Below are positions 24,596 to 63,772 of a stretch of 64,000 bases of DNA, piece by piece. A program made the position numbers and the translations under genes. The notes beneath the pieces were generated by a model, which was not told the DNA's origin, searched no databases, and saw only the letters and a program-made list of their open reading frames with translations. Within the stretch, counting starts at the first letter, position 1. Every line of letters starts with the position of its first letter. The DNA is from an uncultured Candidatus Saccharibacteria bacterium (lineage in GTDB: Bacteria; Patescibacteriota; Minisyncoccia; Phycocordibacterales; UBA9973): positions 1,818 through 65,817 of the forward strand of contig CAZVHB010000001.1 of assembly GCA_964626965.1 (NCBI GenBank), in the 5' to 3' direction.

Positions 24596-24612
24596 AAAAA
24601 AAATTTAACAAT

Positions 24613-25665: not shown

Positions 25666-25753
25666 CTGGTAGTGAATTTTGCAGAAGCGATTTTTTGTCG
25701 CGTTATATAAACATCGTCAAAATCTACTATCGGGTTTGTGATATAATTCTTAT

Positions 25754-26447: not shown

Positions 26448-26476
26448 TTGACAAATAGACCCTAACCTGCTATACT
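26448..26476 (+). promoter_or_regulatory. Perfect sigma70 promoter TTGACA-17-TATACT with no downstream CDS
   Basis: Consensus -35 and -10 with an exact 17-bp spacer. The next feature downstream is a terminator about 50 nt away. Confidence 0.6.
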
Positions 26477-26482
26477 CTTTTT

Positions 26483-26555
26483 GTGAGATAATACTCCTTA
26501 AAGTAATATTGCACAAATGCCTCACAAAACACCCGCAAGGGTGTTTTGTGTTTAT
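26483..26555 (+). ncRNA. Candidate small RNA (about 70 nt, or about 135 nt if it reads through to the second terminator at 26620)
   Basis: Bounded by a consensus promoter and the intrinsic terminator cacaaaacacccgcaagggtgttttgtgttt. No ORF of at least 60 aa. Confidence 0.35.
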
Positions 26556-26581
26556 GGGCAACCTAAAAATAGTGTAATAAG

Positions 26582-26620
26582 AAAAAGTGGGGCAACTATG
26601 TTGCCCCACTTTTTCTTGTT
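26582..26620. terminator. Bidirectional terminator that also ends efp
   Basis: aaaaagtggggcaac-tat-gttgccccacttttt. Confidence 0.8.
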
Positions 26621-26635
26621 TCTATAAATTGTATT

Positions 26636-27217
26636 CTAATTCGCCCTCTCTACATACTCACCATTTTCTGTATTGATACGAATTTTCTCTCCTTCATTTA
26701 AGAACATTGGTACAAAAATTTCTGTACCATTTTCCAAGATAACTGATTTTGTTGCATTTGTCGCGGTGTTACCTCGTACTGCAGGTGCAGCTTCTTTGAT
26801 AATGAATTCCATTTTGATTGGGATTTCTACTGATACGATGATACGATCTTCATTTTCATTTTCAAAAATTTTCATAGTCGCAGTCATTCCTTCTTTAAGA
26901 AATTTTACTTGAGGGTTCCCGATTTTGTCAGCAGGAACAACAAATCTATTTGCTGGATCTTGTGCGTCACAGAACCAGTATTCTCCTTTTGCATTGTACA
27001 GATACTTCACTTCACTTTTTTCGAGATCAGCTTCATCTACTTTATCTGAAACGTGAAAAGAGATTTCAAGTACTTTCCCAGTGAGGAGATTTTTAAGTTT
27101 GGTTGCATTAACCGGTTTTCGTTGTTGTTTTCTAAAAACATGACTCGTGATGACTTCATACGGTTCATCTTCATAGATAATAACTTTTCTTTCTCTAATT
27201 TCATTATATTCTAGCAT
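26636..27217 (-). CDS. efp: Elongation factor P
   Basis: ...NATKLKNLLTGKVLE..., three-domain length, KOW-like N-terminus. Confidence 0.85.
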   Translation of the reverse strand: MLEYNEIRERKVIIYEDEPYEVITSHVFRKQQRKPVNATKLKNLLTGKVLEISFHVSDKVDEADLEKSEVKYLYNAKGEYWFCDAQDPANRFVVPADKIGNPQVKFLKEGMTATMKIFENENEDRIIVSVEIPIKMEFIIKEAAPAVRGNTATNATKSVILENGTEIFVPMFLNEGEKIRINTENGEYVERAN

Positions 27218-27292
27218 ATATTGATATAGTACTTTTTTTTAGGCTAAAAGCAACCCCCGCATCACTTACATTTTTAAAATATGCTATATTGT

Positions 27293-28087
27293 ATGTATAT
27301 GAGTTGGGCAACAGCGCGTCAAGCAAAAGTTATTTTTTCTATACTATTTCTTCTTGTAGGTATTGCAGGTGCGATTTTTCTTTCTGCTTCTGTGAAAAAA
27401 CCAACATGTTTTGACGGGAAAAAAAATGGAGTAGAAGACGGAGTTGATTGTGGTGGTGGATGTTCACTTCAATGTAAAGAATATACTCAAGATGTTGTGG
27501 TGAAATGGCAACGGTCTTATCAAATTACAAAAGGATTTTATAATGCGGTTGCATATGTTGAAAATCAAAATTTTCAAGCAGGAGTACGGAGCGTTCATTA
27601 TAAATTCCGGCTGTATGATGCAGACCGTATTCTGTTGACTGAGCGTGATGGAGAAACTTTTCTTGAACCAAATAAAGCAGTTGTTGTATTTGAACAACAA
27701 ATTCCTGTAGGTAACGCTATTCCGGCATATACAACATTTCAGTTTACTGATGCGATTTCTTGGATCAAAACTGATGCTCGGTACAATGAAATGATTATTG
27801 CGCCATCTGAACAAGTATTTGATGAGAAAGATATCAAACCTCGTTTTTCTACTGTGCTCAAAAATGTCTCTGAAAAATACACCATTTCAAATATTGATGT
27901 GTATGTTGTTGCGTATGATGATGTCGGGAATGCTATTCAGGTTGGAAAGACGCTTATTAAAGAGCTTCCACCTCGTGCGAAAAAAAATGTATTCGTTATT
28001 TGGCAAAATAAATTTGATGTGAAACCGACTCGATTTGAAATAATTCCACGATATAATCCATTTACTCAAGAGTATCCAACCAAATAG
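27293..28087 (+). CDS. Hypothetical membrane-anchored protein
   Basis: N-terminal TM helix and a CFDGKKNGVEDGVDCGGGC motif. The start is 27281, 27293 or 27299. Confidence 0.5.
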   Translation: MYMSWATARQAKVIFSILFLLVGIAGAIFLSASVKKPTCFDGKKNGVEDGVDCGGGCSLQCKEYTQDVVVKWQRSYQITKGFYNAVAYVENQNFQAGVRSVHYKFRLYDADRILLTERDGETFLEPNKAVVVFEQQIPVGNAIPAYTTFQFTDAISWIKTDARYNEMIIAPSEQVFDEKDIKPRFSTVLKNVSEKYTISNIDVYVVAYDDVGNAIQVGKTLIKELPPRAKKNVFVIWQNKFDVKPTRFEIIPRYNPFTQEYPTK

Positions 28088-33872: not shown

Positions 33873-33900
33873 TTGACAAATATTATATATTTGTTATAAT
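33873..33900 (+). promoter_or_regulatory. Sigma70 promoter TTGACA-16-TATAAT
   Basis: Consensus hexamers 18 nt before the ATG at 33919. Confidence 0.6.
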
Positions 33901-33918
33901 AAAAAAAATTTAACAAGA

Positions 33919-34467: not shown

Positions 34468-34564
34468 TTTGTTTGTTCTTAATCATGTAAGTGAGACCTC
34501 CTGTGTTTTTAGCACGGAGGTCTTTTAATTTACGTTTTATTTTCTTTTTTGCTATACTTCACCT

Positions 34565-35206
34565 ATGGAAAATACACAACAAAGTATGCCTGAAAAAATG
34601 GCAAATAATGCATCAAATCATATGAATACAGTAGTGAGTGGCTTCAAAAAGCTCTCTACTACTATCGTTGTTCTTGGTGTCGTAATAATCCTCGTACTCT
34701 GGGGTATGAGTATCAGAAACGGTTTTGCAACAAAGAGTCTTAATGTTGAAGCAAAATTTTCAGCGATAGATACAGACCTAGAGCGTAGATTTGCTTTGAT
34801 TCCAAACTTGGTTTCAACGGTCAAAGGACTCACAGCCCAAGAACAAGAAGTCTTTGGCACTATTGCCCAAGCTCGTTCACAATATGCTGGAGCACAAACA
34901 ACAGAGGGGAAAGCACAAGCTGGAGCTCAGTTTGAAAGTGCACTCGGAAGACTTCTTGTCATTACCGAAAACTATCCTGCTCTTCGTTCAAGTGAAGCAT
35001 TTCAAACACTCATGGCACAACTTGAAGGAACAGAAAATCGTATTTCAGTATCACGTAAAGATTACAATACTGCGGTTCAAGAATACAATACGATGATCGT
35101 TCGTTTCCCAGCAAATATTGTAGCGAAAATCTTTGGCTATACAAGTAAAACATTCTTTACTGCGACAGAAGAAACTCGAACAAATCCACAAGTTAACTTT
35201 CAGTAA
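34565..35206 (+). CDS. lemA: LemA family membrane protein
   Basis: NVEAKFSAIDTDLERRFALIPNLVSTVKG...QARS. TGCTATACT-N6-ATG. Confidence 0.85.
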   Translation: MENTQQSMPEKMANNASNHMNTVVSGFKKLSTTIVVLGVVIILVLWGMSIRNGFATKSLNVEAKFSAIDTDLERRFALIPNLVSTVKGLTAQEQEVFGTIAQARSQYAGAQTTEGKAQAGAQFESALGRLLVITENYPALRSSEAFQTLMAQLEGTENRISVSRKDYNTAVQEYNTMIVRFPANIVAKIFGYTSKTFFTATEETRTNPQVNFQ

Positions 35207-37194: not shown

Positions 37195-37270
37195 GAGTAT
37201 ATATTTTTAAGTGAACAATTTTATTTATTCCAAGTATACCATCTCAGGATTGAAGTGATATAATGGGTGT

Positions 37271-38152
37271 ATGCAGAATAATATACAAAATAACCTCCAG
37301 ATTCAGCAGTCAAAAAATATCCGCCGGACGTGGACACTTATCGGTTTTGTTGGGTTTCTTATTATCGGTCTTGGTTGGCTTTTTTCATACAAAACAGGGA
37401 ACCCATCTATGGTGACCTATTTCGCAGTCGGTGCAATCGTGCTTAATCTTATTTCATATTGGTTCTCTGATAAAATCGCACTGTCTATGAATGGCGCAAA
37501 AGAAGCAAATCCTACTGACTTTCCAAAATTACATGAGATAGTCGAACGTGTTGCACAAAAAACAGGCCTACCAAAACCTCGTGTATACGTGATACAAGAC
37601 AGTGCACCGAACGCCTTTGCGACAGGAAGAAATAAAGAAAATGCTGCTATTGCGTGTACTACTGGGATTCTTGCACTTCTTTCTGATGAAGAGCTCGAAG
37701 GAGTGCTCTGTCATGAATTTGCTCATATTCAAAATAGAGATATTTTGATCAATACGATTGTTGTTGTACTTGTTGGATTACTCTCTATTATCGCTCAAAT
37801 GTTTATGTTCTCGGGGCAGTCACGTGATCGGGATAATAACTCTGGACTTCTTGTGATGCTCGGTTTTCTCTTTGCGTTTCTTTCTCCTATTATCGGGCAA
37901 CTCATTCAGCTTGCAATATCACGCAAGCGTGAATTTCTCGCTGATGCAACAGGCGCGCTGACTCACGGACATCCGGAACATCTCGCCCGAGCGCTTGAGA
38001 AAATTTCAGGTTCTGCACAGCCGATGGTACATGCAAACACTGCAACAGCACATATGTTTATTGCAAATCCATTTGGAAACATCGGTGCACTCTTTGCTAC
38101 TCATCCTCCAGTAAAAGAGAGAGTCAGGGCACTTTTGGGTAATACAAAATAA
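37271..38152 (+). CDS. htpX: M48-family zinc metalloprotease HtpX
   Basis: HEFAHIQNRD (HExxH); TM helices. TATAAT-N6-ATG. Confidence 0.85.
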   Translation: MQNNIQNNLQIQQSKNIRRTWTLIGFVGFLIIGLGWLFSYKTGNPSMVTYFAVGAIVLNLISYWFSDKIALSMNGAKEANPTDFPKLHEIVERVAQKTGLPKPRVYVIQDSAPNAFATGRNKENAAIACTTGILALLSDEELEGVLCHEFAHIQNRDILINTIVVVLVGLLSIIAQMFMFSGQSRDRDNNSGLLVMLGFLFAFLSPIIGQLIQLAISRKREFLADATGALTHGHPEHLARALEKISGSAQPMVHANTATAHMFIANPFGNIGALFATHPPVKERVRALLGNTK

Positions 38153-39239: not shown

Positions 39240-39317
39240 ACAGTAGGGCGCCTATGGCGCCCTACTGTATTTCTATAACCTGTAACCTTTCACCTGTACC
39301 CTAGTTCGTGCTATAGT
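39240..39317 (+). promoter_or_regulatory. Terminator-promoter cassette 1: GC-clamp hairpin, then 4 tandem heptads (ataacct gtaacct ttcacct gtaccct), 9 bp, TATAGT
   Basis: acagtagggcgcc-tat-ggcgccctactgt; heptads 39275-39302; TATAGT 39312-39317; ATG at 39330. Confidence 0.6.
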
Positions 39318-39329
39318 GTATGTACTATT

Positions 39330-41282
39330 ATGGATAATAAATATATGCCAAAAAGTTCCAAATTTCAGAATTTAGAGGATTCTTTGTACGATCCAACCGA
39401 TGACAGTATCCGCACTCGAAGCGGATCTCTACATCCCTCACAAGTTTCTGTTGAACAAAGTTGGTCAAAAGTTGATCAAGCTGAAGACTCACAAGGGCAA
39501 GCTGCAGAAAAAGCATTGATTGAAAACAGGGACGCGCTTTCCAGAAAGAAAAACTCTTTTTTTAAGAAGTTTTTTGTCTCATCACTCCTTTTTCTGTTTG
39601 TCGCTGTTGGTTTTGGTGTGTATTCTTTTTTTATAAAAAATACGATCAATCCAGAGGGGAATATCACTATCGGTATCGTTGGAAGTACTTTTACTCAAGC
39701 TGGAGAAGAATTACCTTTGATTGTTGAAATAGAAAATAAAAATGATTTTGCACTCGAAGTAGTTGATCTGATTGTTGAATATCCTCGTGAAGGAGCGATA
39801 CCGACTGCATCTCTTGAAACGACCGACAGAGAGCGGATATCTCTTGGTACTATTGATGCGCATCAACACATGTTGAAAGAAGTTCCACTCACACTCTACG
39901 GTAAAGAAGGTGATAAAAAGGAGATTCATTTTACACTTGAATACAATATCGAAAGTGCTTCAACAATTTTTCAAAAACAAAAAATATATTCAGTAACACT
40001 CTCTTCTTCTCCGATTGCGATGCGTGTTATTGGTTCTGATATCGCTGTGCCTGATCAGAGTTACCGGTTCACGGTTGAGGTAAGTACTAACACTAAGAAA
40101 CCTCTTGAAAATATTCTTCTTGCATTAAATTATCCTATTGGATTTACCTATACGAGCGCGAGTATTGAACCAAGCTCAGGTAACTATTTGTGGGATATTG
40201 GTACCCTTGTACCAGGAGCCCCAAAGACTATAGAAATTATAGGAAAATTTTCAGGCCTTGAAGGAGACGAAAGATCTGTTCGTGCTATTTTTGGTACGTA
40301 TCTTCCTGATGATAAGACAAAAATCAGTACAAATCTTGGAACTCTCTTGCAAACCGTAAAATTAGAGAAACCTTTCATATCAACAGATCTTGCTATTAAT
40401 GGAGTGAATGGTGAATTTGTAAATATCAACAGTGGTGAACAAATTCAAGGAGTGATTAATTGGAAAAATAACCTAACTAACCAAGTGCTCGATCTTGAGA
40501 TTCGTCTGAAGCTCAAAGGTGACTTACTTGATCGAACAAGTATTGAAGCACAGGATGGCTTTTATGATTCACTCAATGATACGATTGTGTGGAATAAAAA
40601 TACAATTAATTCTTTTGTTCGAGTTCCGGCTGGTGCAAATGGAGCACTTAACTTTACTATTCGCACACTCCCTGCAAAAACAGATGGAAGTATGAAAAAT
40701 CCTCGTATTGAAGTTGAGGTTGGTGTTAAAGCAATTGAAGATAGTGAAGGTAAAACTCCAAAAATTATTGAATCTGTTGAACAGACAACAGTACGTGTTG
40801 GTGGTGATGTGTTTTTGACTCCAGTTGTCTATCATCGTACTGGTCCTATTACAAACGTCGGTGCGTATCCTCCAAAAGTAAACACAGAGACGACCTATAC
40901 TGTTGAACTTAATATTAAGAATACTATTAATGATTACAGTGGTGGAGAAGTTCGTGCAAAATTCTTCCAAAATGTAACATTCACCAATGTTATTGCACCT
41001 GCAACCGAGCAAATTTCATACGACGAGAAAACAGGTGAGCTTGTTTGGAAAGTCGGTGCTATCCCTCAATCAAGTGGTATCGCACGTACTGTCGCATTTC
41101 AATTAAAGACGATTCCTTCACTTTCTCAAGTTGGACAGTTTGTACCTCTCCTTAAGGAAATGACTTTTGTCTCGACTGATCAATTTACTAAAACTCAAAA
41201 ATCTCAGAGTATTGATACGATTACCTCTGAAGTGAGTCGAGTGATTGAGCTCGATGGAGGGAATGCTGTCGTAGTTAAATAA
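39330..41282 (+). CDS. Large membrane-anchored protein (cytoplasmic N-terminus, 1 TM helix, extracellular DUF11-like repeat domains)
   Basis: TM helix FFVSSLLFLFVAVGFGVYSFFI; several blocks matching the conserved repeat domain (DUF11) pattern ...GxxVxYTVxVxN.... Confidence 0.6.
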   Translation: MDNKYMPKSSKFQNLEDSLYDPTDDSIRTRSGSLHPSQVSVEQSWSKVDQAEDSQGQAAEKALIENRDALSRKKNSFFKKFFVSSLLFLFVAVGFGVYSFFIKNTINPEGNITIGIVGSTFTQAGEELPLIVEIENKNDFALEVVDLIVEYPREGAIPTASLETTDRERISLGTIDAHQHMLKEVPLTLYGKEGDKKEIHFTLEYNIESASTIFQKQKIYSVTLSSSPIAMRVIGSDIAVPDQSYRFTVEVSTNTKKPLENILLALNYPIGFTYTSASIEPSSGNYLWDIGTLVPGAPKTIEIIGKFSGLEGDERSVRAIFGTYLPDDKTKISTNLGTLLQTVKLEKPFISTDLAINGVNGEFVNINSGEQIQGVINWKNNLTNQVLDLEIRLKLKGDLLDRTSIEAQDGFYDSLNDTIVWNKNTINSFVRVPAGANGALNFTIRTLPAKTDGSMKNPRIEVEVGVKAIEDSEGKTPKIIESVEQTTVRVGGDVFLTPVVYHRTGPITNVGAYPPKVNTETTYTVELNIKNTINDYSGGEVRAKFFQNVTFTNVIAPATEQISYDEKTGELVWKVGAIPQSSGIARTVAFQLKTIPSLSQVGQFVPLLKEMTFVSTDQFTKTQKSQSIDTITSEVSRVIELDGGNAVVVK

Positions 41283-43993: not shown

Positions 43994-44050
43994 GTGTAAT
44001 AAATATCGCATATATTCGTTATATAGTGTATAGTAAAGAAGAAGAACGTT

Positions 44051-44128
44051 ACCACCAAGGTTCATGAGCGACTGCACTCACATAGGCATTTGTGTTGGAG
44101 TCTGCACCCGCTCATGAACCTTGGTGGT
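44051..44128 (+). terminator. Unusually long hairpin (perfect 20-bp stem, 38-nt loop) followed by a T-run; terminator and/or structured RNA
   Basis: accaccaaggttcatgagcg ... cgctcatgaaccttggtggt, then aattttttt. Confidence 0.6.
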
Positions 44129-44401
44129 AATTTTTTTATTTAGAATTTTTATTTTCTAAATAAAAATTTCTCAATAATAAAATATTTTAAAAAAATAAAT
44201 GTATAAAAATATTTTTTTGAAAAAAAACTTTTATAAAAAATAAAAAAAGTTTTCCACAGTTTTTATTTTTTTTTCAAAAAAACTATTTACTTTATTTTTG
44301 TATATACGATAATTAAATTATCAAGTACATTTAGTAGCATTAAAAATATTTTTGCGAAGGTCGGTGTACTTATTTATTACTAATTGCATGCAAACAATTA
44401 T

Positions 44402-44530
44402 ATGGCAGCTAAAAAAGCAAAAAAGAAAGTAGCTAAGAAAGCAGTTAAGAAAACTGTAAAAAAAGTAGCTAAGAAAGCAGTTAAGAAAACTGTAAAGAAA
44501 GCAACAAAGAAGGTAGCGAAGAAAAGATAG
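44402..44530 (+). CDS. 42-aa Lys/Ala-rich basic protein (histone H1-like / Hc-like nucleoid protein). It is not in the ORF track because it is shorter than 60 aa.
   Basis: MAAKKAKKKVAKKAVKKTVKKVAKKAVKKTVKKATKKVAKKR. It contains an internal 36-nt tandem duplication and has its own terminator. The 82-aa minus-strand ORF 44321-44569 is its antisense shadow. Confidence 0.6.
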   Translation: MAAKKAKKKVAKKAVKKTVKKVAKKAVKKTVKKATKKVAKKR

Positions 44531-45345: not shown

Positions 45346-45380
45346 TACCAGAAGTATGTAAAACGTACTTCTGGTTTTTA
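45346..45380 (+). terminator. Rho-independent terminator
   Basis: accagaagtatg-taaaa-cgtacttctggt followed by ttttaattt. Confidence 0.8.
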
Positions 45381-45437
45381 ATTTCACTTTACTATTGAGA
45401 CATTAATTTTTACTTTATTTTATGCTATAATCGACCT

Positions 45438-47963
45438 ATGAATCTCATGAAAACCATATTTCCGACTTTTTCGGATACGTTTATAAAGAAAGCCGAAAAG
45501 ATAGTAAAAGCTGTAAATACCGAAGAAGTTGAGGTGGTGAAACTCGCCGATGCTGATTTTCCAATAAAAACACAAGAACTCAAAGATAAACTTGCATCAG
45601 GTACATCAATTGATGATATTCTTCCATATGCATTTGCGCTTGTTCGTGAGGCTTCAAAACGTACACTTGGGCAACGCCACTATGATGTTCAAATTATTGG
45701 TGGATATGCACTCCACTCTGGTCATATTGCCGAAATGCGTACCGGAGAAGGAAAGACACTCGTTGGAACACTCCCTGTGTATCTCAATGCTCTGACTGGT
45801 AATGGAGTTCATGTTGTCACTGTAAATGATTACCTTGCGCGTCGTGACGCTGTGTGGATGGGTCAAGTGTATGCATTCCTCGGTCTTACTATCGGTATTA
45901 TTAATTCTCAAAACGTCTCATATCAGTATGATCCAAAACATACAGAACAAGATGAGAATCGCGACGATGTTGGGTCATTTAAGGTAGTTTATGATTTTTT
46001 ACGTCCGACTACGAGAAAAGAAGCATATGCATTAGATATCACTTACGGAACCAATAATGAATTTGGATTTGATTATCTCCGTGACAACCTCGTGGTGTCA
46101 AAAGAGCAACTCTCACAACGGCAACCTTTTTATGCAGTCGTAGATGAAATAGACTCTATTTTGATTGATGAGTCTCGTACCCCGCTTATTATTTCAAATG
46201 AATCAAGTGAATCAGAAAAACTCTATACTGATTTTGCGCGTATTGCAAAACTCCTCATAAAAGATGATGACTATAAGATAGATGAAAAACAGCACACTAT
46301 TGAAATTACTGACCAAGGGATTACCAAAGCAGAACAAATGCTTGGTATAGAAAATATTTATACAGAAAAAGGTATTAAGTATGTCCACCATCTTGAAATT
46401 GCTATCAAAGCTCAATCTCTTTATCATAAAGACAAAGAGTATGTTGTTGCTGACAATGAAATTATTATCGTTGACTCTTTTACAGGACGATTACAACCAG
46501 GACGTCGTTGGTCAGAAGGAATTCATCAAGCAATAGAGGCGAAGGAAGGTGTTGAAATTCAAAAAGAAACAAAAAGTGTCGCGACTATTACATTCCAAAA
46601 CTATTTTAGATTTTATAAAAAGCTCGCTGGTATGACAGGAACCGCAGAAACTTCCAAAGAAGAGTTTTTGAAAGTATATGGCCTTGAAGTTGTGGCTATC
46701 CCAACACACCGACCTGTGAAGCGTATTGACCAAAACGACTTTATTTTTCAAAATGAAAAAGGAAAATTCAAAGCGATTGCCAAGAAAGTAAAAACTCTTC
46801 AAGAGAAAGGACAACCAGTACTTATTGGTACTGTTTCAATTGAGAAAAATGAACTTCTCTCTGCGTACCTTTCAAGTGAAGCTGTCGCGCATACAGTACT
46901 CAATGCAAAGAACCATGAAAAAGAGGGTGCTATTATCGCAGATGCTGGACGGAAAGGTAGTGTGGTAATCGCGACAAACATGGCTGGGCGTGGAGTTGAT
47001 ATTAAACTTGGTGGATCTCATGCAACAGAGACAGAATCAGAAGAGATTAAAACTCTTGGTGGTTTATTTGTGATGGGTACAGAGCGTCATGAAGCACGCC
47101 GTATTGATAATCAGCTTCGAGGACGAGCAGGCCGACAAGGAGATCCAGGAGAAACACAATTTTATGTATCTCTTGAAGATGACCTGATGCGTATTTTCGG
47201 ACCAGATAGAATCAAAGGCATTATGACAAAACTTGGTGTTCCTGAAGATGAACCAATTCAAAATAAGATGATCTCTCGTGGGCTTGAAAGTGCACAGGAA
47301 AAAATTGAAGGATTTCACTTTGACTCTCGAAAACACACACTTGAATACGATTCTGTGATGAACCACCAGCGTGAGACAGTCTATGCTCGCCGTCGTAAAA
47401 TGGTAGAAGCAGAAAAAGCACATATAGAAGAGTATCTTGTAGAATTTATTGGGGCAGATCCGGAATATAGCGAAGAATTACAAAAGCTCATTGATGAGCG
47501 AAAGAAACTCGTCGGCGATGAGGCGTTTATTGAAACATTTCGTCGTGTCGTCCTCCATGTAACTGATATTCTCTGGGTAGAACATTTGGAAACAATGGAT
47601 TATCTGAAGTCTTCAGTGAATCTCCGTGCATATGGCCAGCGTGAGCCACTCATTGAATATAAAAAAGAAGGATTACAGCTTTTTAAAATGATGGAAATTT
47701 CATTCCGTGATCAAGTAATTAACTTCATCAAAACGATGAACACCGAGGCTAGGGTTGCAGGGTCCCAACCGATGGACGATATTAAAGAAAACTATGTTCC
47801 TCATCATGAAGAGATTGGTTCATTTGGAATAGAAGGTACTGCTGAAATGAATACTCACGCTCAACCAATTGAAGCAAAAGATAGTAAGGGGAAAGATATT
47901 GGCCGAAATGATCCTTGTTACTGCGGAAGTGGTAAAAAGTTTAAGAAGTGTCATGGAGTATAA
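45438..47963 (+). CDS. secA: Preprotein translocase ATPase SecA
   Basis: MRTGEGKTLV; DEAD-like motor domains; C-terminal zinc site CYCGSGKKFKKCHG. TGCTATAAT-N6-ATG. Confidence 0.95.
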   Translation: MNLMKTIFPTFSDTFIKKAEKIVKAVNTEEVEVVKLADADFPIKTQELKDKLASGTSIDDILPYAFALVREASKRTLGQRHYDVQIIGGYALHSGHIAEMRTGEGKTLVGTLPVYLNALTGNGVHVVTVNDYLARRDAVWMGQVYAFLGLTIGIINSQNVSYQYDPKHTEQDENRDDVGSFKVVYDFLRPTTRKEAYALDITYGTNNEFGFDYLRDNLVVSKEQLSQRQPFYAVVDEIDSILIDESRTPLIISNESSESEKLYTDFARIAKLLIKDDDYKIDEKQHTIEITDQGITKAEQMLGIENIYTEKGIKYVHHLEIAIKAQSLYHKDKEYVVADNEIIIVDSFTGRLQPGRRWSEGIHQAIEAKEGVEIQKETKSVATITFQNYFRFYKKLAGMTGTAETSKEEFLKVYGLEVVAIPTHRPVKRIDQNDFIFQNEKGKFKAIAKKVKTLQEKGQPVLIGTVSIEKNELLSAYLSSEAVAHTVLNAKNHEKEGAIIADAGRKGSVVIATNMAGRGVDIKLGGSHATETESEEIKTLGGLFVMGTERHEARRIDNQLRGRAGRQGDPGETQFYVSLEDDLMRIFGPDRIKGIMTKLGVPEDEPIQNKMISRGLESAQEKIEGFHFDSRKHTLEYDSVMNHQRETVYARRRKMVEAEKAHIEEYLVEFIGADPEYSEELQKLIDERKKLVGDEAFIETFRRVVLHVTDILWVEHLETMDYLKSSVNLRAYGQREPLIEYKKEGLQLFKMMEISFRDQVINFIKTMNTEARVAGSQPMDDIKENYVPHHEEIGSFGIEGTAEMNTHAQPIEAKDSKGKDIGRNDPCYCGSGKKFKKCHGV

Positions 47964-48045: not shown

Positions 48046-48067
48046 TTGATTATGCTATAATGCATAT

Positions 48068-48394
48068 ATGAATAGTGAAAATGTAAAACTCGTCGTTTTT
48101 GTTCCAATAAGTCATGCAGATATTGTTCGAGAAACGCTGGGAAAAGCTGGAGCAGGAAAAATCGGTAACTACACTTTTTGTTCTTTTTCCGTATCTGGGT
48201 ACGGGCGGTTCTTGCCTGAGCAAGGTGCAACTCCCGCTATTGGGGAGGTCGGTGTATTTGAAAAAGTTGAAGAAGAAAGAATCGAAGTTGTTTGTCCGAC
48301 TGGAATAATAAAAGATGTAATACAGGCCATGAAGGCGGCTCATCCTTATGAAGAAATTGCTTATGAGGTATATCCACTCTTGAATTTTGAATAA
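48068..48394 (+). CDS. Small PII/CutA-like fold protein resembling the insert domain of the Nif3/YqfO family
   Basis: ...GNYTFCSFSVSGYGRFLP..GA.P.IGEVG..E.V.E.RIEVVCP......V..A....HPYEE.AYEVYPL. TGCTATAAT-N6-ATG. Confidence 0.45.
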   Translation: MNSENVKLVVFVPISHADIVRETLGKAGAGKIGNYTFCSFSVSGYGRFLPEQGATPAIGEVGVFEKVEEERIEVVCPTGIIKDVIQAMKAAHPYEEIAYEVYPLLNFE

Positions 48395-50347: not shown

Positions 50348-50364
50348 AGTCGTATTGATTTAGA

Positions 50365-50403
50365 AAAAAGAGATGCATGGCGTAGCCATGCATCTCTTTT
50401 TTA
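50365..50403 (+). terminator. Rho-independent terminator
   Basis: aaaaaagagatgcatggc-gta-gccatgcatctctttttt. Confidence 0.85.
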
Positions 50404-50443
50404 GTGTGTTTAAACTCTTACGTTAATATGCTAGTATGTATAT

Positions 50444-52033
50444 ATGCAAGAAAAAATAAAAAAATTTTTAGGAAAAACGAAAAAAACAACTACCACCACT
50501 CTTAAAACTGTAAGTGATACAACTGAACAAAAATTTCCTAAGGTGTATGCATATATGTTTAAGCATAAGAAAAAATTGTACTGGATTGTTCCAGTAGTTT
50601 TATTGCTTGGGTATTTTGTTTTTAAGCCAAAAAGTATTGACCTAAATACGATTACAGTTGTTCCTGTCGAGACTAAAACTCTCACCTCTACTGTGAAGGC
50701 GAGTGGTAAGGTAACATCACAAGTTGATCTAGAGCTTTCATTTAAGAAATCTGACCTCGTGGACTCTGTACTTGTTTCCGTTGGTCAAACAGTCAAAAAA
50801 GGTCAAATTCTCGCAACACTCAAAAATCAAACTGAGCTCGGTGGTGTGATTCAAGCACGTGGGTCATTAGCTAGAGTTCTCGAAGGTGCGAGTACTGAAG
50901 AGGAACGCGTTGCAGAAGTTTTGTTGGAGAATGCACAAAAGGATCTAGTAAATACAAAAAGACAACAAGAAAAAAATATTGAAAATGCATATCGTACACT
51001 TTTGTCATCGAGCTTACAAGCAATACCTAATACATCTCTCTATTTTGCAACAGTTTCTAATCCAGCAGTGCTTGGAACATACACAGGTTCACAAGAAGGA
51101 ACGTACCGTATTGAGGTATATACTTCAAGTGGTGGGTATGGATTTTATGTAACAGGATTAAACACCACGAGTGGGTCAGTATCTGCTACAAGCCCAACTC
51201 TAATTGGGCACGGTCTATCTTTACAATTTCCAACAGATTTCAATCTTGGTTCAAATAGTGTGTGGAATATCACTGTTCCAAATAAAAATGGGGCTCTGTA
51301 TACCACAAATCTCAATACGTATGAATCAGTAAAGACAACAGCTGAAAGTCTTATCTCGTCAGCTCAATCTATTGTCTCTCAGAGAGAAGCAGAACTTGCA
51401 TTAAAGAAAGCAAAACCAAGAAACGGAGATGTTCTTACTGCTGAAGGTCAGCTACAAAATGCTCTTGGTATTTACGAGGGTACTGTTATCCGTGCTCCAG
51501 CTGATGGTGTTGTGACTAAAGTCTCGATTAAACCAGGAGAGTTAGCAAAAGCGCTAGAGTCAAGTATTGTGATTCAGGATGTATCAAAACTCTATGTAGA
51601 GGCAAATATCAATGAGTCAAACATTACGACTATTCTTGCAGGGCAACCAGTGAGTTTTACTATTGATGCATTTGGTTCAACCCGTGTTTTCTCAGGAACG
51701 GTGATTCAAGTTGACCTAGCACCAACAGTTGCTGATGGTATCGTAAACTATGTGGTTCGAGCATCACTTGATGATACTGATCCACTGATTAAATCAGGAA
51801 TGAACGCAAATCTTACCATTACTACAGGTACAAAAGAGAACGTCCTTGCTATCCCTGGTGCAAGTATTACAAAAGTAGATGATCAGCAAATAGTAAAGAA
51901 AATCACCGATGTAAAGAAAAAGAAGTTTGTAGAAGTTTCCGTGTCTACTGGAATTATGGGTGATGGGAATATGACTGAGATTACGAGCGGACTTACTACT
52001 GGTGATAGTGTTGCACTTATTGAAGCTAAATAG
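50444..52033 (+). CDS. HlyD/MacA-family periplasmic adaptor (membrane fusion protein) with a long inserted domain
   Basis: N-terminal TM helix; biotinyl/lipoyl-like GQTVKKGQILATL; C-terminal beta-barrel GTVIRAPADGVVTKV. TGCTAGTAT-N6-ATG. Confidence 0.7.
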   Translation: MQEKIKKFLGKTKKTTTTTLKTVSDTTEQKFPKVYAYMFKHKKKLYWIVPVVLLLGYFVFKPKSIDLNTITVVPVETKTLTSTVKASGKVTSQVDLELSFKKSDLVDSVLVSVGQTVKKGQILATLKNQTELGGVIQARGSLARVLEGASTEEERVAEVLLENAQKDLVNTKRQQEKNIENAYRTLLSSSLQAIPNTSLYFATVSNPAVLGTYTGSQEGTYRIEVYTSSGGYGFYVTGLNTTSGSVSATSPTLIGHGLSLQFPTDFNLGSNSVWNITVPNKNGALYTTNLNTYESVKTTAESLISSAQSIVSQREAELALKKAKPRNGDVLTAEGQLQNALGIYEGTVIRAPADGVVTKVSIKPGELAKALESSIVIQDVSKLYVEANINESNITTILAGQPVSFTIDAFGSTRVFSGTVIQVDLAPTVADGIVNYVVRASLDDTDPLIKSGMNANLTITTGTKENVLAIPGASITKVDDQQIVKKITDVKKKKFVEVSVSTGIMGDGNMTEITSGLTTGDSVALIEAK

Positions 52034-52040
52034 AAATGAT

Positions 52041-52117
52041 TGTCATTCCGGACTTGATCCGGAATCTAGGACTACCTATACTATACATCTGGATCCTGAA
52101 TCGAGTTCAGGATGACA
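52041..52117. repeat. Palindromic two-hairpin repeat element, copy C (77 bp), sitting inside the transporter operon spacer
   Basis: The left arm is canonical. The right arm carries compensatory changes (atcctgaa-tcgag-ttcaggat) that preserve the hairpin. Confidence 0.8.
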
Positions 52118-52131
52118 CCATAAATTACAAA

Positions 52132-57141: not shown

Positions 57142-57182
57142 CAAATAGTGTATAGGTTTTAGGTGACAGGTTATAGTATAAA

Positions 57183-57276
57183 CAGACGAGGTGTCCGAAG
57201 GACACCTCGTCTGTTGTCTATTCTGTATTTTCTGTACCCTACAACCTACCACCTAAACCCTCGCTCATGCTATAGT
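57183..57276 (+). promoter_or_regulatory. Terminator-promoter cassette 2: GC-clamp hairpin, then heptads (gtaccct acaacct accacct aaaccct), 9 bp, TATAGT, N6, ATG
   Basis: acagacgaggtgtcc-gaa-ggacacctcgtctgt; heptads 57234-57261; TATAGT 57271-57276; ATG at 57283. Confidence 0.6.
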
Positions 57277-57282
57277 GTCTGC

Positions 57283-58626
57283 ATGAATTCCGACAACACA
57301 CTCTTTTTCCAAACCCACCCTGAACTGAAAAATATTCTAGAAGCACACGGAAGTAAGACAATTATGGAGTATATTACTTTTGTGAATGACTTTATTTCAA
57401 AGGGTGATTTTTCTTTTTTTGACCAACGACAGGAAGATTTTTTTGCAGTGTATCAAGAAACACTGAAATCGATTTTTGACGAGCGTGTCATTCGGGAGTC
57501 TATTGAAACCCTTAAAAAAAATAGACTTATCTCTACTGCTGATCATCAAGGTGTCATCTCACATCCATTTTTTCTCAGTAGTACCTATGCTCGTACTCTC
57601 TATGCTCAAAAAGTAGGTCAGGGGAGTGTTGTGACTTTTCCGTGTGCAAGTATCTCTCTTTCAAATTCATCTTTTCCTCGAGGGCTTATTGTTCATGATC
57701 GTGATGATGTTGAGAAAAAAATATATTTTAAATCTCTCGTCCATAAACTCAATCCGGTCTTTTGTGAAGAAAAAATAGAGAGAGACGGTGTACAGAAAAT
57801 GTATGATACTCTCTCTTCAATTACTCTTGAGAAAGAAATGCGTAAAAAAATACTTTCTGTATTTAAAGATATCTTTTTTTCAGAAAAATTTCTAAGCTTG
57901 GAAAGTTTCGATGAACAGTGTACGTATGGGAGTTTAATGCTTTGGAAGTATGTTCCTACTTTCGAAAATATAGATCTCATCTATGTATCTCAAGAAAAAG
58001 TAGTAACTGATTTGATTATTAAAAAACATTTGGGTGGCGATACGCTGATCCACTCTCTTTTGTTCGATGAAACGTATCATGCACTTTTTGTAAGATATTT
58101 TGATGGAATTACTGGGGCATTTGATATACAGGCGAAGAAAGGTACGCAACTGTTTTGGGGTGTTCGCGCGCATGAACGTGTCGCACTTTTTATTCAAGAA
58201 AATAAGCTCATTGATAGTAATGGAGATATATTTCTAATAATAGAGACAGAAGAAATAAAAAAAGCATTACAAGAGAGGCGAATCATGCCGAGCATGCCAC
58301 TCGTTTTTATTGTGCTCTCTTTTTACTATGGTTTTGTCTGTGGTGGGGGATTTAGTCAGGTGGATTATCTGGGGTCTATGAAAAATGCCTGGATGAATAT
58401 GCTTCGTGATGTTGGAGAAAATAGTGAAACTGATCAAGTAGAAAAAATACCGACTAATATTTTGCTTGGTGACTATGCAACGATTCAGTCTGGAGATACT
58501 AAAAAATTGCGTCATGCTTTTCATTTAATCATGAAAGATTCAGCACATACTGAAGATATTAAAAAAATCTTCTTACAGAGAACTATATCAGAAGACATGA
58601 AAGATGGATTTACTCTCTATTTATAA
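57283..58626 (+). CDS. Hypothetical protein (448 aa)
   Basis: Long ORF driven by the heptad-type promoter. No recognisable domain. Confidence 0.5.
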   Translation: MNSDNTLFFQTHPELKNILEAHGSKTIMEYITFVNDFISKGDFSFFDQRQEDFFAVYQETLKSIFDERVIRESIETLKKNRLISTADHQGVISHPFFLSSTYARTLYAQKVGQGSVVTFPCASISLSNSSFPRGLIVHDRDDVEKKIYFKSLVHKLNPVFCEEKIERDGVQKMYDTLSSITLEKEMRKKILSVFKDIFFSEKFLSLESFDEQCTYGSLMLWKYVPTFENIDLIYVSQEKVVTDLIIKKHLGGDTLIHSLLFDETYHALFVRYFDGITGAFDIQAKKGTQLFWGVRAHERVALFIQENKLIDSNGDIFLIIETEEIKKALQERRIMPSMPLVFIVLSFYYGFVCGGGFSQVDYLGSMKNAWMNMLRDVGENSETDQVEKIPTNILLGDYATIQSGDTKKLRHAFHLIMKDSAHTEDIKKIFLQRTISEDMKDGFTLYL

Positions 58627-59338: not shown

Positions 59339-59425
59339 CGGAAGAGGGGAGATTCGAACTCCCGGTGCGGTTTCCCGCACGCCACCTTTCCAAGGTGGTA
59401 CATTAAACCGCTCTGCCACCCTTCC
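59339..59425 (-). tRNA. tRNA-Ser (anticodon GGA), type II with a long variable arm; CCA is not encoded
   Basis: RNA sequence GGAAGGGUGGCAGAGCGGUUUAAUGUACCACCUUGGAAAGGUGG...GGGAGUUCGAAUCUCCCCUCUUCCG. Anticodon loop UUGGAAA, T-loop GTTCGAATC. TATAGC lies 7 nt upstream. Confidence 0.85.
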
Positions 59426-59445
59426 GTTACTGCTATAGTAGCATA

Positions 59446-59988
59446 TTAGAGGCTGAAGACCTTGCAGACGAGTACCGTCACTGGGTCAATACTACAACTA
59501 TTTGCGAGGATTCCGCCGAGTGCGCCAGTCATCATGACTGAGAGAAAACCAGCACTTGCGAGTATGATTCGAACAGCTGTTTTTTCAAACAAGAAAATAA
59601 AACTGAGAAGAAATGCTGGGATTTTTGATCTGATGAGTGTGTATATTTTTGAGTTTCTCACTTGTGGCATATTCTCCATGAATGAAATAAGATATGATAT
59701 TGCAAGTACTAAAAAAATTGCCACAGTTATACTTGCAAATGTTTGATGGAGGTCGAGTGTTGCACGAAGGTGCATATCATTTCTGTTGATAATGTCTTCT
59801 ATCATCTCACCGGTTGTTTCTGAGAGAAATCCAGAAACAACTCCAGTAACGAGAAGTATTCCTTTGGTGACTTCTAAAGATTCTTTTTTACGAAGGTATT
59901 TTGACAGGGAGAGCATTTCTAAAAACGCATATAAAGAGAGCAGTGCAATAGGGAAATGGACGAGTAATAAGTGGTAGTTATTGTTCAT
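59446..59988 (-). CDS. Hypothetical integral membrane protein
   Basis: Five or six TM helices. Start taken at the MNNNY ATG (59988) to avoid a 5' overlap with ogt; the ORF track extends to 60084. Confidence 0.5.
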   Translation of the reverse strand: MNNNYHLLLVHFPIALLSLYAFLEMLSLSKYLRKKESLEVTKGILLVTGVVSGFLSETTGEMIEDIINRNDMHLRATLDLHQTFASITVAIFLVLAISYLISFMENMPQVRNSKIYTLIRSKIPAFLLSFIFLFEKTAVRIILASAGFLSVMMTGALGGILANSCSIDPVTVLVCKVFSL

Positions 59989-60010
59989 ATTCACATGATA
60001 CACTGTTTTT

Positions 60011-60430
60011 ATGATGCAAACAATTGAAGTTGAGACACCAATAGGGAAGATGACCGTAATGTCAGGTAATAGTACTCTCCTCAAAAAATACCAAAAAAAT
60101 ATAAAGAATTACTTTTCCAAGAAAAAGTACGATATGGATTTTGCTGATTTTGATATAGAAGGTACACCATTTCAAAAAAAAGTTTTGGAGGTACTCTTTA
60201 GTGTTCCTTATGGAGAGACTATTTCATATAAGGAACTGGCAAAATACGCAGGCAAACCAAAAGCAATTCGTGCTGTTGCGAATGTAGTTGCGAGTAATAA
60301 ACACTATATTTTTATTCCGTGCCATCGTGTGGTCGCAAGTGATGGAACACTTGGTGGATACGGTGCAGGATTTAAGAGAAAAGCGTGGTTATTGAGGCAT
60401 GAAAGTGGAAGGATTATAAATACTAAATGA
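60011..60430 (+). CDS. ogt: Methylated-DNA--protein-cysteine methyltransferase
   Basis: Active site IPCHRVV; HTH YGETISYKELA. Confidence 0.85.
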   Translation: MMQTIEVETPIGKMTVMSGNSTLLKKYQKNIKNYFSKKKYDMDFADFDIEGTPFQKKVLEVLFSVPYGETISYKELAKYAGKPKAIRAVANVVASNKHYIFIPCHRVVASDGTLGGYGAGFKRKAWLLRHESGRIINTK

Positions 60431-60529: not shown

Positions 60530-60616
60530 AACAGCGGGACGCCCTTCGGGCGCCCCGCTGTTTGATTTTTCCTATAACCTAATACCTATCAACTATAACC
60601 TAGCGCGTGCTATAGT
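60530..60616 (+). promoter_or_regulatory. Terminator-promoter cassette 3: GC-clamp hairpin, then heptads (ataacct aatacct atcaact ataacct), 9 bp, TATAGT, N6, ATG
   Basis: acagcgggacgccc-ttc-gggcgccccgctgt; heptads 60574-60601; TATAGT 60611-60616; ATG at 60623. Confidence 0.6.
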
Positions 60617-60622
60617 TTCTCT

Positions 60623-61402
60623 ATGCACACAGCACACAGTGTTAAAAAAATAGGATTCTATGATTCTGGATTAGGAGGACTCTTTTTAATGCACTATGTA
60701 CAAACAGTATTTCCGGGATACGAATATGTCTTTTTGGGGGATGAGAAAAATCTACCCTATGGTCCACGTCCTGTCGAAGAACTATTTACCTTTGCTCGTA
60801 CTGCTATCGATTTTTTATATGATAAAGAAAATTGCGATATTGTCGTTATTGCGTGCAATACGCTCTCTGCGACTGTGTATGAAACTTTGGCGCTCGAGTA
60901 CAAGGTAAAGCATCCTGACCGATTACTTATCGATGTCATTACACCGACTATCGACGCACTTGAGAAAGATACACACTTCAGTGTCTTTGGAACACTACGC
61001 ACTATTGAAAGTCATCTCTATCGAGATGGCATTACTAAAAATTTTCCTGACGCGAAAGTCGATGAGTACGTCGCGACTAATCTTGCATTGTTGATAGAAG
61101 AAAAAAGAGATACGACCGAATCAATCAGTTCTTTTAAAGATCAGGTTTATCCTCATCCTCATACGATGATCTTGAGTTGTACTCATTATGGAATAGTGGA
61201 AGATGTTTTTCGAAAGGTATATCCAGAGTGTTCCGAGATTATTTCCCAGCACTCAATCATAACTGATCTCTTTCGTTTCATGCTCCATCCAGGAGGTGAA
61301 GAGGTATCTGTGCGGATATTGGTGACAAAAGATAATCCAGTGCTTACTGCATATAGTAAAGAATGGTTTCCTTCGGTAGGGCCTGAAGTGATAAATCTCT
61401 AA
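60623..61402 (+). CDS. murI: Glutamate racemase
   Basis: IGFYDSGLGGL; VIACNTLSA; SCTHYG. Confidence 0.9.
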   Translation: MHTAHSVKKIGFYDSGLGGLFLMHYVQTVFPGYEYVFLGDEKNLPYGPRPVEELFTFARTAIDFLYDKENCDIVVIACNTLSATVYETLALEYKVKHPDRLLIDVITPTIDALEKDTHFSVFGTLRTIESHLYRDGITKNFPDAKVDEYVATNLALLIEEKRDTTESISSFKDQVYPHPHTMILSCTHYGIVEDVFRKVYPECSEIISQHSIITDLFRFMLHPGGEEVSVRILVTKDNPVLTAYSKEWFPSVGPEVINL

Positions 61403-61417: not shown

Positions 61418-62002
61418 GTGTGGTATGATATCCAAGTAATGAAACCTGTTATTCCACCACATGCAAAAAAAGTCTTTGAAGGGATTATTTTTGATATTCA
61501 TCAGTGGCAACAAGAAATGTTTGACGGTACTACTGCGACCTTTGAACTCGCCAGTAGACCAAGTGTTGTCGTAACACTCCCTGTGATGGGTGATAAAATC
61601 TTGGTGGTTAAGGAAGAACAGCCGGGACGTCCACCGTATATTTCTGCACCAGCTGGATTTTCTGAGAAACAAGATATTGATGCACTCGCAACTGGAAAAC
61701 GAGAACTACGGGAAGAAACAGGCCTCACGAGTGACGACTGGGAACTTTTTGATATATATGAACTCTATCCGCGGATGAGTGTCACAGACGTAGTCTATAT
61801 TGCTCGTGATTGTAAAAAGACTCATGAGAAGACTCTCGATCGTGGAGAGCGACCTCTTGAAGATTTATGGCTGACGCTCGATGAATTTATTGATTTAGTT
61901 GATCGACCTGATTTTGCGAGTTTGTTTATGAAACATCATCTTGTTCGTGCAAAGTATGATCCTGAGTACAGAGAAGTTTTGAGGAAGAAAATTTTTGGTT
62001 AG
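61418..62002 (+). CDS. Nudix hydrolase (ADP-ribose pyrophosphatase-like)
   Basis: Nudix box AGFSEKQDIDALATGKRELREETGL. Confidence 0.75.
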   Translation: MWYDIQVMKPVIPPHAKKVFEGIIFDIHQWQQEMFDGTTATFELASRPSVVVTLPVMGDKILVVKEEQPGRPPYISAPAGFSEKQDIDALATGKRELREETGLTSDDWELFDIYELYPRMSVTDVVYIARDCKKTHEKTLDRGERPLEDLWLTLDEFIDLVDRPDFASLFMKHHLVRAKYDPEYREVLRKKIFG

Positions 62003-62870: not shown

Positions 62871-62909
62871 TTCTTTATAATTTGGAATTTATAATTTATA
62901 ATTGTTTGT

Positions 62910-63599
62910 ATGGCTCTAGTTAAAACAAAAAAAGAAATAGAAAACATACAAACTGCGTGTCAGATTACCGACGAGATTTTTAAAGAGGTGATTGTGTATG
63001 TGAAAAAAAATCGAGCGTGTACTGAGATTGAATTACAAAAATATATTTTACAACTCATAAAAAACAGAAATCTTCGCCCAAGTTTTCCGCCGATTGTGAC
63101 TTCGGGTTTCCGAGCAGGGAACGACATTCACCCAAAACCGACTGATAAAAAACTTGCCGGATTTACTATTATTGATCTCGGTGTTCGGTATAACGGATTT
63201 TGTTCTGATATGACTCGTACTATCTATGTAGGTGGACCAACAGAAAAAGAAAAAGAACTGTATCAAAAAATACTTGATGTGCAGTTGCTCGGTATCAAGC
63301 TTTCTCAGTCTGATGTGCGTTGTAGTGATATTGATGCGTCTGTGCGTTCATCACTTGATTCGCTTAAGAAATATTTTATTCATACCCTCGGACACGGTGT
63401 CGGACGAAAAATTCACGAAGCACCGATTATCTATGAAAAACGTACTAAGCCAGTTTTGAAAGATGCTATGGTGATTACTATTGAACCAGGTATCTATATC
63501 AAAAACAAGCTCGGAATAAGGATAGAAGATACGATTGTGGTCCAAGGTAAGAAACCGCTCATTTTGACTAAAACAACTAAAAAATTAATTTCTCTATAA
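62910..63599 (+). CDS. M24-family metallopeptidase (Xaa-Pro aminopeptidase / methionine aminopeptidase fold), catalytic domain only
   Basis: DLGVRYNGFCSDMTRT; HTLGHGVGRKIHE; MVITIEPGIY...GIRIEDTIVV. Confidence 0.8.
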   Translation: MALVKTKKEIENIQTACQITDEIFKEVIVYVKKNRACTEIELQKYILQLIKNRNLRPSFPPIVTSGFRAGNDIHPKPTDKKLAGFTIIDLGVRYNGFCSDMTRTIYVGGPTEKEKELYQKILDVQLLGIKLSQSDVRCSDIDASVRSSLDSLKKYFIHTLGHGVGRKIHEAPIIYEKRTKPVLKDAMVITIEPGIYIKNKLGIRIEDTIVVQGKKPLILTKTTKKLISL

Positions 63600-63620
63600 T
63601 ACGCACAACCTCACTTGTTG

Positions 63621-63696
63621 TGTCATTCCGGACTTGATCCGGAATCTAGAGTTTTGGAATGATCCATCCTGGATTCCGGATCAAGTCCGGAATGAC
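63621..63696. repeat. Palindromic two-hairpin repeat element, copy D (76 bp)
   Basis: tgtcattccggacttgatccggaatctaga...ctggattccggatcaagtccggaatgaca. Confidence 0.8.
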
Positions 63697-63772
63697 AATG
63701 CGGGCACATAACCCTTTCACAAAATATCGTATTTGTTATACTGTAATTGTATTAGTTTAATTATTACATTTC

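Follow-up and report, generated by a model that had tools for sequence, protein, structure and literature searches.

We studied the gene starts in a stretch of 64,000 nt (the window) from an uncultured Candidatus Saccharibacteria bacterium (assembly GCA_964626965.1, contig CAZVHB010000001.1, positions 1,818-65,817, forward strand), in which a -10-like hexamer recurs six nucleotides before the ATG. The window has a GC content of 38% and is read with genetic code 11. The 20 bases flagged in an earlier note on this DNA, 45421-45440, read taTGCTATAATcgacctATG and contain the start of secA. The closest SecA relatives were encoded in metagenome-assembled genomes labelled Nomurabacteria, Zambryskibacteria, Paceibacterota or Parcubacteria (53-93% identity, i.e., 93% for the nearest locus, L001, and 53-68% for the others). 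Judged by these best relatives, the organism is a member of the Patescibacteria, Parcubacteria/Paceibacteria group.

A site was called strict when a TAnnnT hexamer, six nucleotides and an ATG followed one another, and near-leaderless or short-leader when the spacer was 7-12 nt. Our curated table of 60 genes, 59 of them starting with ATG, comprises about 41 first genes of transcription units and 19 operon-internal genes. The strict sites were the following:

2386-2403, minus strand: recG; GGGTATACT, 6 nt, ATG with its A at 2388 (start in the ORF, or open reading frame, track: GTG 2409)
2508-2525, plus strand: DUF192 gene; GGGTATACT, 6 nt, ATG 2523
9048-9065, plus strand: polA; TGATACAAT, 6 nt, ATG 9063
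13568-13585, plus strand: pilin 2; ATGTATACT, 6 nt, ATG 13583; N_methyl motif at residues 18-41
14209-14226, plus strand: pilin 3; GGGTATACT, 6 nt, ATG 14224
14781-14798, plus strand: pilD prepilin peptidase; TAGTATACT, 6 nt, ATG 14796; A24_N domain from residue 11
20467-20484, plus strand: UvrD/PD-(D/E)XK helicase-nuclease; GGGTATACT, 6 nt, ATG 20482
25739-25756, plus strand: 162-aa protein with no Pfam match; TGATATAAT, 6 nt, ATG 25754
34550-34567, plus strand: lemA; TGCTATACT, 6 nt, ATG 34565
37256-37273, plus strand: htpX (M48 peptidase); TGATATAAT, 6 nt, ATG 37271
45423-45440, plus strand: secA (841-aa ORF); TGCTATAAT, spacer cgacct, ATG 45438
48053-48070, plus strand: 108-aa gene; TGCTATAAT, 6 nt, ATG 48068
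50429-50446, plus strand: HlyD-like gene; TGCTAGTAT, 6 nt, ATG 50444
57268-57285, plus strand: 447-aa gene; TGCTATAGT, 6 nt, ATG 57283 (start in the ORF track: GTG 57163)
59986-60003, minus strand: divergent partner of 60011, an extra and weaker case; GTGTATCAT, 6 nt, ATG with its A at 59988
59996-60013, plus strand: methylguanine methyltransferase gene; TGATACACT, 6 nt, ATG 60011
60608-60625, plus strand: murI-like racemase; TGCTATAGT, 6 nt, ATG 60623; Asp_Glu_race match below the Pfam cut-off

Pfam supported the names RecG, DUF192, PolA, the two N-methyl pilins, PilD A24, helicase-nuclease, LemA, HtpX-type M48 and HlyD-like, and the first domain lay mostly within ~15 residues of the proposed ATG. 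The earlier note had listed 14 genes with a -10-like hexamer six nucleotides before the ATG; on re-reading, all 14 have the arrangement TAnnnT-6 nt-ATG. Three further strict sites (25754, 60011 and 59988 on the minus strand) and seven sites at spacers of 7-12 nt lie beyond that list. The consensus TGnTATAMT given in the same note turned out to be looser than stated: TGn is present at 8 of the 14 sites and TATAMT at 10, but four carry GGG and two other triplets, and the remaining hexamers are TACAAT, TAGTAT and, twice, TATAGT. In the base profile of the 17 strict sites T-12, A-11 and T-7 are invariant, followed by A-9 (88%), T-10 (82%) and G-14 (82%). No -35 signal appeared in this profile, and a two-hexamer search found a -35 match at one of the 17 only, the helicase gene at 20482 (TTGAAA-16). 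The pyrimidine present at -1 in 17/17 strict sites was dropped as independent evidence of the transcription start, as other starts mostly have T at -1 too.

The start codons that the earlier note had moved are plausible, if tentative, for 57283, recG and pilD. The change at 57283 receives some support from L001, whose ortholog keeps TCATGCTATAGTnTCTGCATG while the sequence further upstream diverges, with indels. Those at recG and pilD are based on the promoter position and the starts of the Pfam domains; in RecG the wedge domain begins at residue 15, and an earlier ATG at 2394 directly adjoins the -10 box. Gene 49097 was left unclassified: the 45 nt before it hardly differ between the window and L001, so that TTG 49067 or GTG 49070 is probably where it really begins. 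Gene callers tuned to Shine-Dalgarno (SD) sequences may misplace starts in genomes of the candidate phyla radiation (CPR), as the ORF track may have done here for recG, pilD, the helicase and 57283, and the -10/ATG rule would be a simple fix.

Spacing between the -10 box and the start codon

We read the listed sites as promoters of leaderless mRNAs, i.e., with leaders of 0-2 nt, and give this reading, drawn from sequence, a probability of about 0.8. The bacterial -10 hexamer spans positions -12 to -7. With six more bases after it, +1 would fall on the A of the ATG, and it is by applying this established rule that we infer the transcription start.

The spacing test took 59 ORFs with a length of 100 aa or more and was anchored, regardless of the motif, on the first ATG in each; a -10 box was TATAAT with at most one mismatch and with T1, A2 and T6 fixed, and spacers of 0-45 nt were scanned. 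A box stood at spacer 6 in 13 of the 59 starts, against ~1 expected (binomial p = 1.9e-11), and in 0-3 at each other spacer, with none at spacer 5 and two at spacer 7. Starting from the motif instead, (TGn|GGG)+TAnnnT occurred 68 times on both strands and was followed by an ATG at spacer 6 in 12 cases, all 12 opening long ORFs. The histogram of distances from any -10 box to any ATG, irrespective of genes, was only mildly enriched at spacer 6 (20 against 11 +/- 3.3) because the AT-rich background is high.

The earlier note had pointed to the -10-to-ATG distance histogram as a check, and when run on the ORFs of the window and on the loci of relatives it peaked at 6 in both. Among 822 genes in 77 Patescibacteria loci, 63 had the box at spacer 6, 19 each at spacers 7 and 8, and 35 at spacer 9, against a background of ~5; the three Chloroflexi loci used as outgroup gave no peak. 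A TGnTAnnnT motif lay within 40 nt of the ATG in 57 of 63 secA orthologs and at 6-14 nt in 52 of them, as compared with 1/63 in a control window. In L001 the box and its spacing are kept at secA, 57283 and 39330, and the sequence further upstream diverges. The secA ortholog there retains TGCTATAAT, 6 nt and ATG with different spacer letters, and a 24-nt block is identical at gene 39330, where the spacer is 12; the ortholog of 50444 reads TGCTACAAT, 8 nt and ATG. To judge from these comparisons the feature is lineage-wide, and in the relatives it takes the form of no leader or a very short one.

The seven sites of the window with longer spacers were:

3545-3563, minus strand: near-leaderless; TGGTATACT, 7 nt, ATG with its A at 3547
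6069-6088, plus strand: near-leaderless; TTGACA-16-TGATATAAT, 8 nt (agctttAT), ATG 6086
24474-24493, minus strand: near-leaderless; TTGACA-16-TGCTATAAT, 8 nt (gtatctAT), ATG with its A at 24476
27282-27301, plus strand: near-leaderless, start choice uncertain; TGCTATATT, 8 nt (gtatgtAT), ATG 27299
39309-39332, plus strand: short leader; TGCTATAGT, 12 nt, ATG 39330
61421-61441, plus strand: short leader; TGGTATGAT, 9 nt, ATG 61439
62894-62912, plus strand: near-leaderless; TATAAT, 7 nt, ATG 62910

The promoters at spacer 8 (6086, 24476 on the minus strand, 27299 and the L001 ortholog of 50444) all read ...ATATG, and either A could be the first base of the transcript, which would then have an AU leader of 2 nt or a true 5'-AUG.

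These seven sites bear on an alternative which we consider unlikely, namely that the transcripts are not strictly leaderless and start a few nucleotides upstream (or downstream) of the AUG, with leaders of 1-5 nt and SD-free translation all the same. Besides the boxes at 7-12 nt and the three spacer-8 genes of the window with their choice of A, the secA spacing of the relatives, most often 9 nt, and the second peak at 9 in their general histogram speak for it. The peak of the window is nevertheless razor sharp at 6, where the canonical +1 would be the A of the ATG, and a peak so narrow is difficult to account for if the precise 5' end is of no importance.

Promoter-like traits of the motif and the initiation of translation

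The strict motif was found at 17 of the 41 first genes of transcription units and at none of the 19 operon-internal genes (p = 5e-4). In six cases a strong terminator of the gene before, called by a prediction tool, ends 26-68 nt ahead of the ATG: polA (8991-9022, ending 41 nt upstream), pilD (14731-14764, 32 nt), secA (45347-45375, 63 nt), 48068, 50444 (50364-50402) and 57283 (57181-57215). With such distances there is not much space for another promoter together with a 5' untranslated region; at 48068 the 16-bp stem ends at 48042, 10 nt short of the extended -10 box. The divergent ATGs at 59988 (minus strand) and 60011 (plus strand) are 22 nt apart with their -10 boxes overlapping back to back, and there is no room for leaders between them. 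A 12-bp hairpin with a T-run, read by eye from the sequence, lies directly upstream of the helicase-nuclease gene at 20482; a hairpin with a T-run (13507-13536) and another hairpin (14119-14148), both of family D9, precede pilin 2 and pilin 3, respectively.

Boxes of the same type occur before non-coding genes:

25298-25310, plus strand: promoter of the RNase P RNA gene; TATAGT, with its end 3 nt upstream of the 5' boundary set by Rfam (25307)
59425-59443, minus strand: tRNA-Ser promoter of the extended -10 type; TGCTACTAT, with its end 9 nt upstream of the mature 5' end (59425); hexamer TACTAT, two mismatches to TATAAT

The same -10 box, together with TTGACA 16-18 nt upstream, forms promoters matching the consensus at 11-12 of 12 positions before genes with leaders of 17-54 nt. 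Sites from the two-hexamer promoter scan as a whole were not enriched over shuffled sequences (47 vs 61, 62 vs 59, 60 vs 64 and 14 vs 11); an exact TTGACA occurred at only eight of them, six serving leadered genes or an RNA candidate (see below) and two serving spacer-8 genes. The 6-nt spacer of the strict sites contains 21% G, the corresponding positions in other genes 7% (p = 6e-4); an ordinary content, such as that of the spacer, is expected if it is untranscribed. Folding of the first 40 nt from the ATG was weak (-1.65 kcal/mol; windows inside genes, -4.25 kcal/mol; p = 2.5e-6).

Several independent lines thus agree in supporting, at the level of sequence, that TAnnnT acts as a promoter rather than as a signal in the RNA. 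The opposite proposal, that the mRNAs carry leaders from upstream promoters or read-through and that TAnnnT is an A/U-rich enhancer or other non-SD translation motif, seems to us improbable. SD-less, A/U-rich initiation regions are clearly used at other genes of this organism, and the genomes of group B in the GeneMarkS-2 classification carry a non-SD motif close to the start and at a constant distance from it (PMC6028130). However, a translation signal would be expected at operon-internal genes too, where the motif is absent, and the invariant T-12, A-11 and T-7 with TGn at -15/-14, the tRNA and RNase P RNA boxes, the pairing with TTGACA elsewhere, a spacer that unlike real leaders is not G-depleted and the strong terminators just upstream all speak against the proposal. 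Chance co-occurrence of AT-rich hexamers and ATG was rejected with hardly any doubt: TAnnnT is common in a genome of 38% GC and the gene-agnostic enrichment at spacer 6 is mild, but the excess anchored on gene starts (p = 2e-11), the long ORFs opened by all 12 strong motifs with an ATG at spacer 6 and the conservation in orthologs, secA among them, speak against it.

Other observations concern the promoters themselves. The tRNA-Ser promoter TGCTACTATAGCA (59431-59443) is near-palindromic, and the plus strand also reads TGCTATAGT there, antisense into the gene at 59446-59988. A 14-nt motif overlapping the -10 box, GGTGTSGGGGTATA, has five copies in the window, against 0.12 expected by chance, at 2397-2410 (minus strand), 2501-2514 (plus), 11489-11502 (minus), 11586-11599 (plus) and 20460-20473 (plus), i.e., at the promoters of recG, the DUF192 gene, a PEMT-like gene and the UvrD/PD-(D/E)XK helicase; an exact 13-mer of it was seen in one unrelated relative only (L055). 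Promoters with this motif may form a class of their own or a regulon, perhaps of DNA repair, in which GGG replaces TGn. The leadered genes 24613 and 33919 have near-identical promoters and leaders (24578-24611 and 33883-33916: TTGACA ... TATAGT/TATAAT AAAAAAAATTTAACAA), a likeness of sequence that suggests a duplicated expression cassette or co-regulation.

SD sequences were not visible, as had been noted before: the 4-mers GGAG, GAGG and AGGA occur within -20 to -4 at 5% of starts and in 9.6% of control windows inside genes, i.e., they are depleted, not enriched. At the 36 non-leaderless starts A makes up ~50% and G 3-11% of the positions from -20 to -2 (G 6.9% at -15 to -4, against 20% window-wide). 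Operon-internal genes start mostly 1-8 nt past the preceding stop codon, and upstream of them we found just the A-rich, G-poor composition. There is no sign of SD-dependent initiation in this organism. Nor were SD motifs enriched in the relatives (11% vs 14%), in contrast to the Chloroflexi outgroup (34% vs 19%).

The window itself contains no rRNA gene, only the RNase P RNA and one tRNA. The search for an anti-SD sequence, which the earlier note had also proposed, was therefore made in one relative, the Nomurabacteria locus L005 (65% SecA identity). Its 16S rRNA ends in ...GGAAUCAUUCAAUG (in a longer reading, ...AAGUCGUAACAAGGCACGGGUAGCGGAAGCUGCUCGUGGAAUCAUUCAAUG), with UUCAA in the place of CCUCC of Escherichia coli. 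On the same contig SD motifs precede 0 of 15 genes and a start-proximal -10 box 6 of 15. The anti-SD has thus been lost in L005, and the organism of the window would probably share this loss. The L005 16S gene (1-2400) has in addition an insertion of ~1 kb near its 3' end, at about E. coli position 1400; the Rfam alignment breaks off at 1319, the real end of the 3' exon being near 2395. Insertions of this sort are typical of rRNA genes in the CPR.

Taken together, these data would fit the following course of expression. A housekeeping RNA polymerase of the sigma-70 type would recognise the -10 hexamer extended by TGn or GGG without a -35 element, open the DNA and start on the purine seven nucleotides past the hexamer, the A of the ATG. 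The transcript would begin with 5'-pppAUG, and the ribosome with initiator tRNA would bind the terminal AUG directly, without pairing of SD and anti-SD. This mode would serve roughly half of the transcription units of the window. We infer for the remaining genes either A-rich, G-poor leaders of 17-54 nt, permitting initiation on unstructured leaders, or coupling of stop and start, with re-initiation 1-8 nt past a stop codon.

The leaderless interpretation offered in the earlier note is in agreement with the spacing, the restriction to first genes, the terminators, the -10 boxes of the RNA genes, the conservation, the depletion of SD motifs and the 16S rRNA of L005. Its further claim that leaderless initiation is dominant holds in the following sense: strict sites number 17, or up to 24 with those at spacers 7-12, of ~41 transcription units (~40-55%), and they account for about one third of the genes in the 64 kb.

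Some points weigh against our reading. The commonest secA spacing in the relatives is 9 nt, not 6, which implies leaders of 2-3 nt and makes the lineage-wide rule one of a very short or no leader, not strictly zero. At two of the 17 strict sites (recG and pilin 2) an earlier in-frame ATG was skipped owing to the motif, which is partly circular. Read-through of the terminators could also supply leadered mRNAs for these ORFs. For the anti-SD we draw on one relative (L005) and one paper (PMC9297842), and the sample is 64 kb of a genome.

The Parcubacteria/Paceibacteria lineage appears to have given up SD-based initiation. Whether the whole CPR class (Paceibacteria/Parcubacteria) works without SD and anti-SD by three routes, a 5'-terminal AUG in about half of the units, short A-rich unstructured leaders, and stop-start re-initiation within operons, is a proposition to which we would give even odds.

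Other elements of the window

The three tandem pilin genes share a 163-nt block that codes for the N-terminus (13029-13191, 13640-13802 and 14248-14410; 91% and 67% identity), and the same terminator hairpin recurs after each of them (13507-13536, 14119-14148). The leader of pilin 1 (13014) is ~25 nt long, whereas none is predicted for pilins 2 and 3. A candidate small RNA at 26448-26625 (plus strand) consists of a TTGACA-17-TGCTATACT promoter (11/12 matches), ~70-140 nt free of ORFs and two terminators of the hairpin/T-run type; an Rfam scan of 26230-26650 gave only sub-threshold matches, probably due to chance, and no family at threshold.

A palindromic repeat of ~84 nt (TTGTCATTCCGGACTTGATCCGGAATC ... 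GGATTCCGGATCAAGTCCGGAATGACA), resembling miniature inverted-repeat transposable elements (MITE) or repetitive extragenic palindromes (REP), is present in four copies at 106-189, 2997-3080, 52040-52123 and 63620-63703. The copy at 52040 comes right after an ATG at 52036, so that the gene there probably starts at ATG 52132. In an otherwise empty gap of 711 nt, an ORF of 42 aa rich in Lys and Ala (MAAKKAKKKVAKKAVKKTVKK...; 44403-44530, plus strand) is built of 12-nt tandem repeats, and its predicted product looks like a histone H1-like or nucleoid protein. Upstream of it, at 44041-44130, is a hairpin with a 22-bp stem.

Comparison with known systems

The mechanism proposed here is of a known kind; what is new is its setting, a low-GC, code-11 CPR lineage, together with the lack of SD use. 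The signature of GeneMarkS-2 group C, described in Actinobacteria and Deinococcus-Thermus, is that 25-50% of operons have a Pribnow box at 6-8 nt from the start, which makes the start codon the site where transcription begins (PMC6028130); for Deinococcus deserti, differential RNA sequencing gave 47-60% leaderless mRNAs (PMC4007540). The window resembles these genomes (Mycobacterium tuberculosis, Streptomyces, D. deserti) in the spacing, in a similar fraction of transcription units (17 of ~41 at spacer 6 and five more at 7-9) and in a motif that behaves as a promoter and stays off operon-internal genes. It differs from them in that their other genes use SD sites, whereas SD motifs are depleted here and a relative lacks the anti-SD, and in that TGn or GGG commonly extends its -10 box. 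Code-11 genomes within group C are almost all of high GC content, and the low-GC ones are those of Mycoplasma, which use code 4 (bioRxiv 10.1101/2022.07.25.500264). The Mycoplasma/Mollicutes genomes, with 30-60% of transcripts predicted to be leaderless and SD models for the other genes (same source), are likewise small, AT-rich and rich in leaderless transcripts, but they belong to another phylum and, unlike the window, use code 4 and SD sites elsewhere. Our reading would extend leaderless-dominated expression, found by earlier surveys almost only in high-GC bacteria and Mycoplasma, to a low-GC, code-11 lineage with ultra-small genomes, and it touches the question of whether leaderless initiation is an ancestral trait or has arisen repeatedly as genomes and ribosomes were reduced. 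For the genetics of Patescibacteria, a bare TGnTATAAT-N6-ATG cassette is predicted to suffice as expression signal.

The leadered and internal genes of the window resemble group B (Bacteroidetes type) in their A-rich, G-poor upstream regions without SD, but about half of the transcription units of the window are predicted to have no leader. Bacteroidetes retain the anti-SD. In group B the motif precedes all genes, internal ones included, and leaders are present (PMC6028130), whereas TAnnnT was found at first genes only. The archaeal group D (haloarchaea, Sulfolobus) likewise has many leaderless transcripts and little or no role for SD; its promoter box is ~26 nt upstream (PMC6028130), and the window has instead a -10 box of the bacterial kind, with its end 6 nt upstream. 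If the class as a whole proves SD-free, its initiation regime would be nearer to that of haloarchaea than to that of textbook bacteria, possibly in connection with a reduced ribosome.

Our literature search found no report of leaderless genes or expression in CPR bacteria. The nearest system by descent is that of the Parcubacteria without anti-SD: just 48% of Parcubacteria were found to have the motif (Tsurumaki et al. 2022, PMC9297842), and in this group bS21 is often absent and the lineages without uL1 overlap those without the anti-SD (PMC9297842). These bacteria are of the same broad lineage as the organism of the window, and the features seen here agree with theirs, i.e., a 16S rRNA without CCUCC in L005 and genes without SD in the window. 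That survey describes a feature of the rRNA, does not contain the word leaderless and is silent on how translation starts; the arrangement described here would provide a candidate mechanism, and with it a candidate explanation of initiation in bacteria of a lineage with no anti-SD in its 16S rRNA.

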